Virus genome (UHGV): UHGV-0181805
Direction: 5' to 3' (one strand)
Length of the DNA: 33,768 nucleotides
Origin: a virus
Each line of letters begins with the position of its first letter. Position 1 is the first letter of the stretch. The notes below the pieces were generated by a model. That model was given only the letters and a program-made list of their open reading frames with translations. It had not been told where the DNA came from and did not search any database. Below are positions 2,111 through 4,495 of the stretch, in pieces. Position numbers and translations under genes: made by a program.

Positions 2111-4495
2111 TTAATGTACAAGTACAGTGATGGTTACTTCCTTTGATTCATTTACTGATACTACCCTCCCTACGGCTTTACGATAATCTATAAATGATGG
2201 TTCTGATATGTACACCCCGCTTATGCCACCATTAGAATCTCTCTGTGGTATAAGATACTCGCCTGGATTTCCGCCGATGACATTAACAGGAACGCGACCA
2301 CAAAAGGCTAAGCGGTCAACTTTCTTCCTCTCCTCTTCTGAGGATGCTATCCATTGTTTGTATTCAGCACTCTCCATGTCTGGCTCATTATTTCTGGCCC
2401 ACTCCTGCTCTGAATTCCACGATACAAGTTCGGCTTCATAGCTTCGGAAGTATTCAGCATAAACTGACTCTGCCTCTTCCTGTGACATCCCTGACCGAAT
2501 CATAGCCGAGACCATAGAATATTCAGGTTTCACGGGTTTTTGTTTTCTGAGTTTCTTTTCCCATTCTGCCCATTCTTGCGATGGGTATTCTGGGCGCTCG
2601 CTTTGTAGCCATGTGTCACCGCCAACAAGACATGGGTTGGTACTTTTTACCATGAAGCTAACTGCACTGTCATATCTGTCAGTGATATTCCCGTCCGCGT
2701 CAATTCCGCATATATCGCCTGGCTTAATGTCTCCACAGCCTTCTGATTTGTAGAAATATTCAGCGTAATCAGCTCCGGAAGAATTAACTGTGCCAGCGCA
2801 GTTTATGCTCCTGTCCGTTGCTGATGACTTTCCTACGAACATAACAGCGTCTGATGCGTTCGCACCTCCTGAGGCTTGTTGCCGTATGACGACCCCAGCT
2901 GCTCCATTGGGACCAAACTGTGCGGCGATTTCGTTCACCCCCTTTCGGTTTGTTTGTGTGATGCTACCGGCAGGGTCAATGATAAGTACGTTGGTTTCCT
3001 CTCCAACACCATCAACCTGTGACGCCAGCACAAATGCCGCAGCGTTGGGGGTTAGAATTTTGATACCGGACTGATCGTGGTCTGAGAAGAACCCATATGA
3101 TGTAGCACCCCATGAGCGATATGAATATGTTGAACCAGGCCAAACATCATGTGCTTTGCCAAACTTACCTACAGCCTGGTATGCGCTATCAACTATCTCA
3201 TCAGGATTAAATGCATTGTTGTTGATAGCTTTATAAACCTGACTATCAGAACCTGTTCCGTCTTTATATAGGTTAAGCATCACCTCCATACCAACTGCAG
3301 ACGTTGCAGCTGCATCTTCAGGAACTGTTACAACAGTATTATTCCCCCATACACGATATACAGGAGAGATATAAAGTGTTCCTGATGGAGTGCTCTGAGT
3401 TCCTGACGTTTTTTCATACCATCCATCAACGGTGATGCTTGACGAATTAAACCCCCTAATAAGACCAAACCATGTTTTCGAAGATCCTATAACCACCGCG
3501 GTCATATTTATCCTGACCTTAGCCGGATCAATGGTAATACTAGATGCTCCTGTTGTGCTAAAAATAGCTCCAGTTAGCGTGTACAATGGCGGTAATGCAG
3601 TATTTTCAAAATATGTAGCAGCAGTATCTGTACTGCCGTATTGGGCCAGCGATTGACCGGTTCCGGCGCCTAGAATGCCGGTAAAATGCTCAGCATCACG
3701 AGTCGCAGCCACAGCCGTTAAAACACATGCATCTTCAAAAACACCAAATGGTTGTTTTTGATGCTTTATTCCTCCATATCGGAACTCATAACCATCAGAA
3801 AAACTTCTATCAGATCTGTTATATGAACCAGGTATTAGCCCTGGAATTAGGAAATCAGCATTTTTCTCAATGATGTAATGCCCCTCTGATATCAGCCTCG
3901 TCATATCAGCAGAAGATGCTGCTTCAATGCCTTCTTTTACTGGCAGCCAAAATCCTGATGGCTCTTCATCGCTGGTTATGGTGTGCGGTATGGTTGCCGT
4001 ATATCTATAAACGGTTGCGCTACCAAGATGCAATACAACATCGCATGGGTTATTTATTGTTACTCCTGGTTTGAAATATCCAATTAAATTATATCCAGGA
4101 AGTTTACTGTATTTATCCCAAAGATTTAATAAGTTTATATCAAGGTAAGGAAACTTTGATGATGGATCATACTTCAGCACATTCGGAAAATAGAACTGCT
4201 GAGAACCATACGCATCATAAACAGCCATAGAATGGCCTTGCACGGTAACGAATTTGGCAATCTGTCCGTTATATACCGGATATCCAGCAGCGTTAATGAT
4301 GATTGGTTGCGAAACAGGAACGTGAGATCCGTCTTCGTTCTCCACATAAACCTGAATCTGGTTTTCAGGATTTACCGGGTCAGTGTCAATTTTACCGATA
4401 TAAATTTTGCCATTGGCTACGGCTTTAAAAGAACGCGCCATAGTGAAGAGTTGCGAAGGCATGCTTACCACAACATTGGCTGTAATGTCTGTCAT
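2111..4495 (-). CDS. Tailspike protein (P22 gp9-type head-binding N-terminus, divergent receptor-binding body, extra C-terminal domain)
   Basis: N-terminus [11 protein letters not shown]...[33 protein letters not shown]...AAG...YNGQ...[15 protein letters not shown] closely matches the recalled P22 tailspike head-binding domain; 794 aa; last gene of late operon. Confidence 0.9.

Follow-up and report, generated by a model that had tools for sequence, protein, structure and literature searches.

UHGV virus genome UHGV-0181805, a 33,768-nucleotide (nt) stretch of viral DNA analysed here at its full length (the window), encodes a tailspike in an open reading frame (ORF) at 2111-4495. This tailspike is a mosaic, as an initial annotation of the window had proposed: its anchor, body and C-terminal module have different phylogenetic distributions. 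Judging from its sequence, we favour, with some confidence but short of certainty, a tailspike precursor of modular build, from a P22-like (Sf6/HK620-type) prophage, that carries a Peptidase_G2-like, self-cleaving C-terminal auto-chaperone.

The C-terminal module extends from about R562 to H794, and it is just this part that unrelated proteins, hundreds of fibre proteins among them, have in common with the tailspike. A word-indexed search with amino acids (aa) 532-794 returned 18 proteins that are alike only over the last 156-240 residues, their upstream parts being unalignable. Searching 1.84 billion cluster representatives exhaustively with the profile of the module gave 3,181 matches, each representing a cluster at 50% identity, and 1,386 of them lie at E<=1e-30. 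The domain reaches the last residue in all 150 of the matches listed, in proteins of 182-1184 aa. Scans of the module against Pfam and NCBIfam gave no match, and PHROGs returned solely PHROG 34132, the tailspike's own uncharacterised family. By these sequence comparisons, the module has a history separate from that of the rest of the tailspike.

Conservation within the module is concentrated around one motif. R562, G568, G574, D576, Y577, E579, Y580, K583, P621, V624 and G625 are invariant in 162 representatives. The D, Y, E and Y of DYAEY are invariant in 162 of 165 representatives, family sequences having been trimmed on a D-x-x-E-type pattern that the other three do not carry. The predicted P1 residue in the family is A, N, T or S. 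After the motif come the core blocks G-D-I-x-G-I-D and F-x-V-K-S-T-N-P-x-x-V-G-G-D-x-W, then a variable linker, and past it R-x-x-V-D-R-I-A-F-x-G-Q-V-P-V-N-V, G-x-Y-I-x-P, V-G-K-V and I-I-V-K. AlphaFold modelled a confident beta core for the module (mean predicted local distance difference test score, pLDDT, 84), which begins exactly at the DYAEY motif and is preceded by a low-confidence linker. The parts of the module that matter to cleavage are as follows.

2771..2812, minus strand: lead-in strand, aa 562-575, ending at the predicted P1 residue A575; kept in the family.
2756..2770, minus strand: DYAEY, the predicted autoproteolytic motif, aa 576-580, with predicted scissile bond A575/D576 and predicted catalytic residue E579.
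2114..2770, minus strand: predicted released auto-chaperone fragment, aa 576-794 (219 aa, 24.8 kDa).

The module is found regardless of host. It is 35-57% identical between the E. coli prophage protein and proteins of Vibrio and Aeromonas phages, Janthinobacterium and Sphingomonas prophages and giant-virus-like contigs, and Massilia genomes also carry it. It is rare in cultured phages (3 of 50,697 records) and in E. coli (5 of 5,426 complete genomes), yet abundant in metagenomes. Such host-independent conservation, unlike that of a receptor-binding tip, points to a chaperone rather than a receptor binder.

Next, we compared the module with phi29 gp12 (Peptidase_G2, PF11962; PDB 3GQH, 3SUC), whose domain likewise stands at the extreme C-terminus of a trimeric spike and starts with D-[YF]-A-E-Y, at the gp12 S691/D692 cut. 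Gp12 reportedly has an autochaperone function and undergoes autocleavage after trimerisation followed by ATP-dependent release of the fragment, as Xiang and colleagues are said to have described in 2009. A first hhalign comparison placed ADYAEYF of the tailspike on S691-D-F-A-E-Y-F-E of gp12, and the last residue of mature gp12* is 691 (PMC6542822). D576 and E579 are thereby aligned to gp12 D692 and E695, DYAEY sits where gp12 is cut, and the lead-in at aa 562-575 aligns to 'ik..gtv....[GS]' ahead of D692. D692 and E695 are taken to be catalytic in gp12, in keeping with the MEROPS 'G' (glutamic) class of the family. The same DYAEY recurs in most of 22 PF11962 proteins, as part of [FS]-[GS]-D-Y-A-E-Y-F-E-S.

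When 162 family members were aligned to phi29 gp12 plus the 22 PF11962 proteins, hhalign returned a pairwise E value of 2e-4. The alignment ran colinearly between the cleavage motif and the C-terminal strand, with the helical stretch of the window's protein appearing as an insertion. Corresponding blocks (family first, gp12 second) are GDI.GID and GyiVTLd, VKSTNP..VGGD and GVIS.TAGviLG, R..VDRIAF.GQVPVNV and R.EWnvVGL.GQV..Ri, and a terminal ..A.IiVK strand. Reciprocal hmmsearch comparisons between the family and G2 gave weak scores of 14-17 bits, always in register, and weak PF11962 matches were found in 4 of 20 homologues (best E 9e-4), a profile to which phi29 gp12 scores 325 bits. Across the family, the fragment predicted to be released has a median length of 163 aa, equal to the 163-aa chain of the gp12 fragment. 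The fold comparison suggested in the initial annotation gave a divided answer: Foldseek recovered 'Preneck appendage protein' models from BFVD, a fold resemblance in line with gp12, and nothing significant from the PDB (best E 0.09).

That last result is one of several that weigh against a G2-like identity. PF11962, with a gathering score of 25 bits, did not match the tailspike or its C-terminal part even at E<=10. The hhalign probability was just 45% in local and 22% in global mode, and gp12 was not retrieved in HMMER runs of C-terminal family profiles against PDB sequences. After DYAEY, M-x-K is invariant in this family and F-E-S in G2. The AlphaFold2 (AF2) model of the C-terminal domain is a monomer of what is presumably a trimer. 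Between close paralogues, moreover, the module diverges faster than the body, which could fit a host-facing function. Because gp12 was not matched across the PDB, Foldseek was non-significant and the residues after the motif differ, the module is most likely, from its sequence, a distant G2-like relative of the phi29 gp12 auto-chaperone and not a member of PF11962. Both PDB profile searches also gave a weak match to DruH (PDB 9tud_A, residues 445-579; E 0.6-0.85), reproducibly covering the 'SF.VKST..LV' and 'R...D.i.F.G.V' blocks; this match is probably due to chance.

The divergence of the module bears on a different possibility, that it stays permanently in the mature spike as a distal trimerisation cap or a secondary receptor-binding knob, with DYAEY playing a structural part. 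The auto-chaperone-like C-terminus of the P22 tailspike, the fin, is kept uncleaved (PMC3357383), the fold is also that of non-cleaving cement proteins, the module outpaces the body when the window and B7A alleles are compared, and cleavage in family members is itself a prediction from sequence. Set against this, the motif is invariant in more than 160 diverse representatives exactly at the position of the gp12 scissile bond, conservation independent of host would be unexpected of a receptor-binding tip, and the beta core starts right at the motif after a low-confidence linker. We consider a retained cap unlikely, albeit a serious contender.

The other C-terminal chaperone that could be expected in a self-cleaving tailspike is of the Peptidase_S74 type (endosialidase K1F, CUS-3, T5 pb1; Ser-Lys dyad), which the initial annotation had suggested checking for. 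Among the cleaved chaperones of tailspikes, S74 domains are the most frequent (PMC4690869), and the P22-like phage CUS-3 provides a precedent, its endosialidase tailspike having the same head-binding N-terminus. PF13884, however, was unmatched at E<=10 for the whole protein, for its C-terminal part and for 20 homologues, and the core here is beta-stranded and compact as in phi29, whereas S74 chaperones are elongated (PMC4690869). With no PF13884 match and no S74 signature or fold, an S74 identity was rejected as hardly credible, and the domain looks G2-like instead.

We also examined the Trp/Glu-rich stretch for which the C-terminal region had been singled out.

2339..2608, minus strand: Trp/Glu-rich helical insertion (expanded linker), aa 630-719, inside the chaperone domain.

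These residues contain 5.6% W and 18.9% E, compared with 1.2% W and 3.5% E in aa 1-575, and AlphaFold places four helices in them. The linker that joins the two beta-core halves measures 101 aa here against a family median of 45 aa (rank 148 of 152), and the Trp/Glu-rich columns have an alignment occupancy of 0.01-0.7, being mostly empty in other members. The long linker and the empty columns suggest a conserved beta domain into which an expanded helical linker is set, and by alignment the stretch is a lineage-specific expansion of a variable linker. It is also the least conserved segment, with 31-37% identity in B7A and EC26. The smallest family members total about 156 aa, indicating that the domain can do without the insertion. 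The initial annotation had described a Trp/Glu-rich C-terminal domain of about 200 aa with a Gly-rich end. A separate module was indeed found, shared by unrelated proteins, whereas the Trp/Glu richness is confined to aa 630-719; the end is mildly Gly-rich and is in fact the conserved beta core.

It had likewise been proposed that this domain serves as a chaperone or auto-processing unit, or as a novel enzymatic add-on. The G2-like motif and alignment favour the former. An enzymatic or membrane-active addition, such as an esterase, a lyase or a Trp-rich membrane-interacting helix bundle, would accommodate the unusual, amphipathic-looking Trp/Glu-rich helices and the lack of any annotated family besides the uncharacterised PHROG, and tailspikes with extra esterase domains exist (bioRxiv 10.64898/2026.07.31.742079). 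It is nevertheless disfavoured because those helices show the lowest conservation of any part and are lacking in the majority of family members; in addition, the conserved core is unlike any enzyme fold, and it is at the gp12-type cleavage motif that conserved residues are grouped. We therefore regard such an add-on as very improbable. A further reading would make aa 562-794 a large, un-named third class of C-terminal maturation domains of fibres and spikes, related to G2 only at the superfamily level. Its signature would run R-S-I-N-x-x-G-T-x-N-x-S-G-A up to the predicted cut and D-Y-A-E-Y-M-x-K beyond it, and the enterobacterial Trp/Glu insertion would have a function of its own, for example as a trimeric helical clamp replacing the ATP-dependent release of phi29 or in a post-cleavage role of the 25 kDa fragment. 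This is conceivable but doubtful.

Under the preferred reading of a G2-like auto-chaperone, maturation may be pictured by analogy with gp12. In three nascent chains, the C-terminal domains would be the first to fold and associate, thereby setting the register of the body, and trimer nucleation may be helped by a helical bundle that the Trp/Glu-rich insertion contributes. Once the trimer has formed, the chain would cut itself between A575 and D576, with the invariant D576 and E579 acting as in glutamic peptidase family G2. The products would be a 575-aa mature spike of 61.5 kDa and a discarded fragment of 24.8 kDa. The comparisons show directly where the module begins and ends, its C-terminal position, the invariant motif and its independence of host; cleavage and its site, chaperoning and whatever part the helical insertion plays are predictions.

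The remaining parts of the protein are arranged as follows.

2111..4495, minus strand: tailspike coding sequence, stop codon included; 794 aa, 86.4 kDa precursor (ORF list; PHROG 34132 match).
4160..4495, minus strand: P22-type head-binding (tail-hub anchor) domain, aa 1-112; Pfam PF09008.
3755..4159, minus strand: neck or proximal domain, aa 113-247; kept among E. coli paralogues, with 90-91% identity to B7A and EC26.
2813..3754, minus strand: variable receptor-binding, putative depolymerase body, aa 248-561; 84-85% identity to B7A and 48-49% to EC26.

The ORF is real, running on the minus strand from an ATG at 4495 to a stop at 2111-2113, and PHROG 34132 matches it over its full length. The initial annotation held that the first 115 or so residues resemble P22 gp9, that the rest does not, and that the protein is over 100 residues longer, and all three statements were borne out. 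Pfam Head_binding (PF09008), the domain by which the trimer docks on the tail hub, matched aa 1-112 with an E value of 2.4e-66 (221.5 bits against a cutoff of 24; profile positions 1-112 of 113). The same residues align gap-free to the P22 head-binding structures 2vky, 2vnl and 1lkt and are about 95% identical to Sf6 gp14 (7sg7), these PDB matches being restricted to N-termini; identity to the E. coli P22-like phages HK620, N7 and HZ41 is 96-98%. Past residue 113 or so, no match to the P22, Sf6 or HK620 bodies was found. P22 gp9 has 667 aa, which the tailspike exceeds by 127 aa. For the neck, AF2 gave moderate confidence at aa ~123-187 only.

The body has a single solved relative, PDB 24qj_A ('Tailspike depolymerase'), detected with an E value of 1e-11 in a single-sequence search and 5e-28 with the family profile over about aa 220-430. 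An alignment of aa 420-600 with the C-terminal end of 24qj was sought and none was found. The closest cultured-phage homologue of 24qj is a putative tail fibre of the Klebsiella phage RSU-F4K5; among the 50,697 phage records, the body matched only this phage and Pantoea phage AH01, weakly, at 27-28% identity, and in the central region (aa ~220-430) the identity to RSU-F4K5 is 29%. No Pfam family (beta-helix families included), NCBIfam family or annotated PHROG matched the body. An AF2 model of aa 113-574, built from a 15-sequence alignment, was poor (pLDDT 47), too poor for a fold search to be made from it. We found no relevant paper on PDB 24qj or the DYAEY motif in the literature. Its position, its divergence pattern and the name of 24qj lead us to infer that the target of the body is a surface polysaccharide, which it binds and probably cleaves or deacetylates.

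The divergence pattern was obtained from two colinear paralogues, B7A (794 aa) and EC26 (787 aa). Percent identities of the window's protein to each were:

aa 1-112: B7A 96%, EC26 96%
aa 113-247: B7A 91%, EC26 90%
aa 248-430: B7A 84%, EC26 48%
aa 431-561: B7A 85%, EC26 49%
aa 562-629: B7A 68%, EC26 74%
aa 630-719: B7A 37%, EC26 31%
aa 720-794: B7A 52%, EC26 55%

These values mark aa 113-247 as a conserved neck and aa 248-561, as far as sequence divergence can tell, as the fast-diverging, specificity-determining body. At the DNA level, the EC26 match stops at nt 740 of the gene. Many E. coli prophage tailspikes match the first ~340 nt, which encode the head-binding domain, at about 96% identity, and the anchor occurs in about 1,150 of the 5,426 complete E. 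coli genomes by DNA search. The whole gene is present at >=99% identity in only three of these genomes, TW10573, 503440 and 503829, all human isolates, where it is 99-100% identical and annotated as 'phage head-binding domain-containing protein'. In metagenomic relatives, the same body and C-terminus follow a different anchor, Tail_spike_N (PF18668), and one such gene adjoins tape-measure and NlpC/P60 genes on a siphovirus-like contig of about 50 kb.

As to the wider spread of the C-terminal module, full-length copies in species-representative bacterial genomes were found mostly in Oxalobacteraceae (Janthinobacterium, Massilia, Duganella, Collimonas, Telluria) and Sphingomonas, while Halomonas and Ramlibacter had a single locus each. 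Elsewhere, as in Bacteroidota and Margulisbacteria, matching was limited to the N-terminal motif region of the module. The E. coli occurrences look like a rare import. On the ENA contig GROS21-1 scaffold_168, a gene at 8001-9272 encodes a member of the C-terminal domain family, and its neighbours encode two Collar-domain proteins, a family-X DNA polymerase, a GT90 glycosyltransferase and an ankyrin-repeat protein. BFVD linked the fold of the module to a Hokovirus collagen-repeat protein (E 8e-4). This gene context and the Hokovirus link suggest that giant viruses of eukaryotes may also use the module.

A P22-like virion module ends with the tailspike gene, which is preceded on its own strand by genes for terminase, P22 portal, P22 coat, Phage_stabilise (gp10) and DUF2824 (gp14-like), together with gp7, Inj_translocase (gp20) and a 583-aa gp16-like gene. 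Between the gp16-like gene and the tailspike, the window (4496-4626) lacks the immI region (arc/ant genes) that occupies this position in TW10573, B7A and EC26, and holds just a terminator hairpin and about 60 nt.

4559..4578, minus strand: intrinsic terminator-like hairpin in the intergenic region between the gp16-like ejection gene and the tailspike, GACCCAGCTTCGGCTGGGTT then TTTTT.

On the other side, a 340-aa Acyl_transf_3 (PF01757) membrane acyltransferase gene of very low GC content (24-32%) occupies 1000-2022 on the plus strand. It is convergent with the tailspike, the two genes having in common an AT-rich inverted repeat at about 2051-2088, and the pair is also found in TW10573 and EC26. 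Its product is probably an O-antigen acetylase (seroconversion) that partners the specificity of the spike. The left end of the window carries a ybhB (PEBP/kinase-inhibitor; PF01161) fragment at 50-268, and from nt 583 on the window is 100% identical to strains 503440 and 503829, in which that left-end stretch overlaps intS beside tRNA-Arg/yfdC. No integrase ORF was found between ybhB and the acyltransferase gene in the window, so this prophage end appears truncated or rearranged relative to the two strains. The left-end query is partly multi-copy (median 10 places per genome), and some of its matches overlap IS1 annotations.

Self-cleaving C-terminal chaperones govern the folding of recombinant tailspikes and depolymerases and the choice of construct ends. 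If the module is a G2-like auto-chaperone, then: 1) a maturation site would be predicted for thousands of metagenomic fibre proteins, in at least 3,181 clusters at 50% identity; 2) engineered spikes for E. coli typing or therapy would call for residues 1-575 co-expressed with or fused to 576-794; and 3) a mechanism of the phi29 type would no longer be confined to Gram-positive picoviruses but would also operate in P22-like prophages of enterotoxigenic E. coli and, it seems, in giant-virus-like genomes. The variable body and the adjoining low-GC acyltransferase gene form, putatively, a rare O-antigen specificity module.

The combination of an anchor, a depolymerase body and a self-cleaving C-terminal chaperone is already known. 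P22 gp9, Sf6 gp14 and HK620 gp9 share with the tailspike the PF09008 head-binding domain and a gene position after the ejection-protein genes, but their bodies are unrelated to it in sequence, and the P22 fin is uncleaved (PMC3357383), whereas cleavage is predicted here. PDB 24qj is homologous in the central body region (aa ~220-430) and differs in having another N-terminal anchor, another distal body and no G2-like C-terminal module. CUS-3 and K1F endosialidase tailspikes follow the same concept of an exchangeable depolymerase body with a self-cleaving C-terminal chaperone, behind a P22-type anchor in CUS-3; their chaperone is Peptidase_S74, of which this tailspike has neither signature nor fold. 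Compared with phi29 gp12, the predicted P1 residue is Ala here and Ser or Gly in G2, the tailspike has a helical insertion of about 90 aa, and the family occurs in Gram-negative phages and prophages and on giant-virus-like contigs, whereas G2 occurs in Bacillus and Staphylococcus phages. What is new is thus the type of chaperone, a large branch distant from Peptidase_G2 and outside Pfam, NCBIfam and the annotated PHROGs, which in this tailspike carries an unusually long helical insertion.

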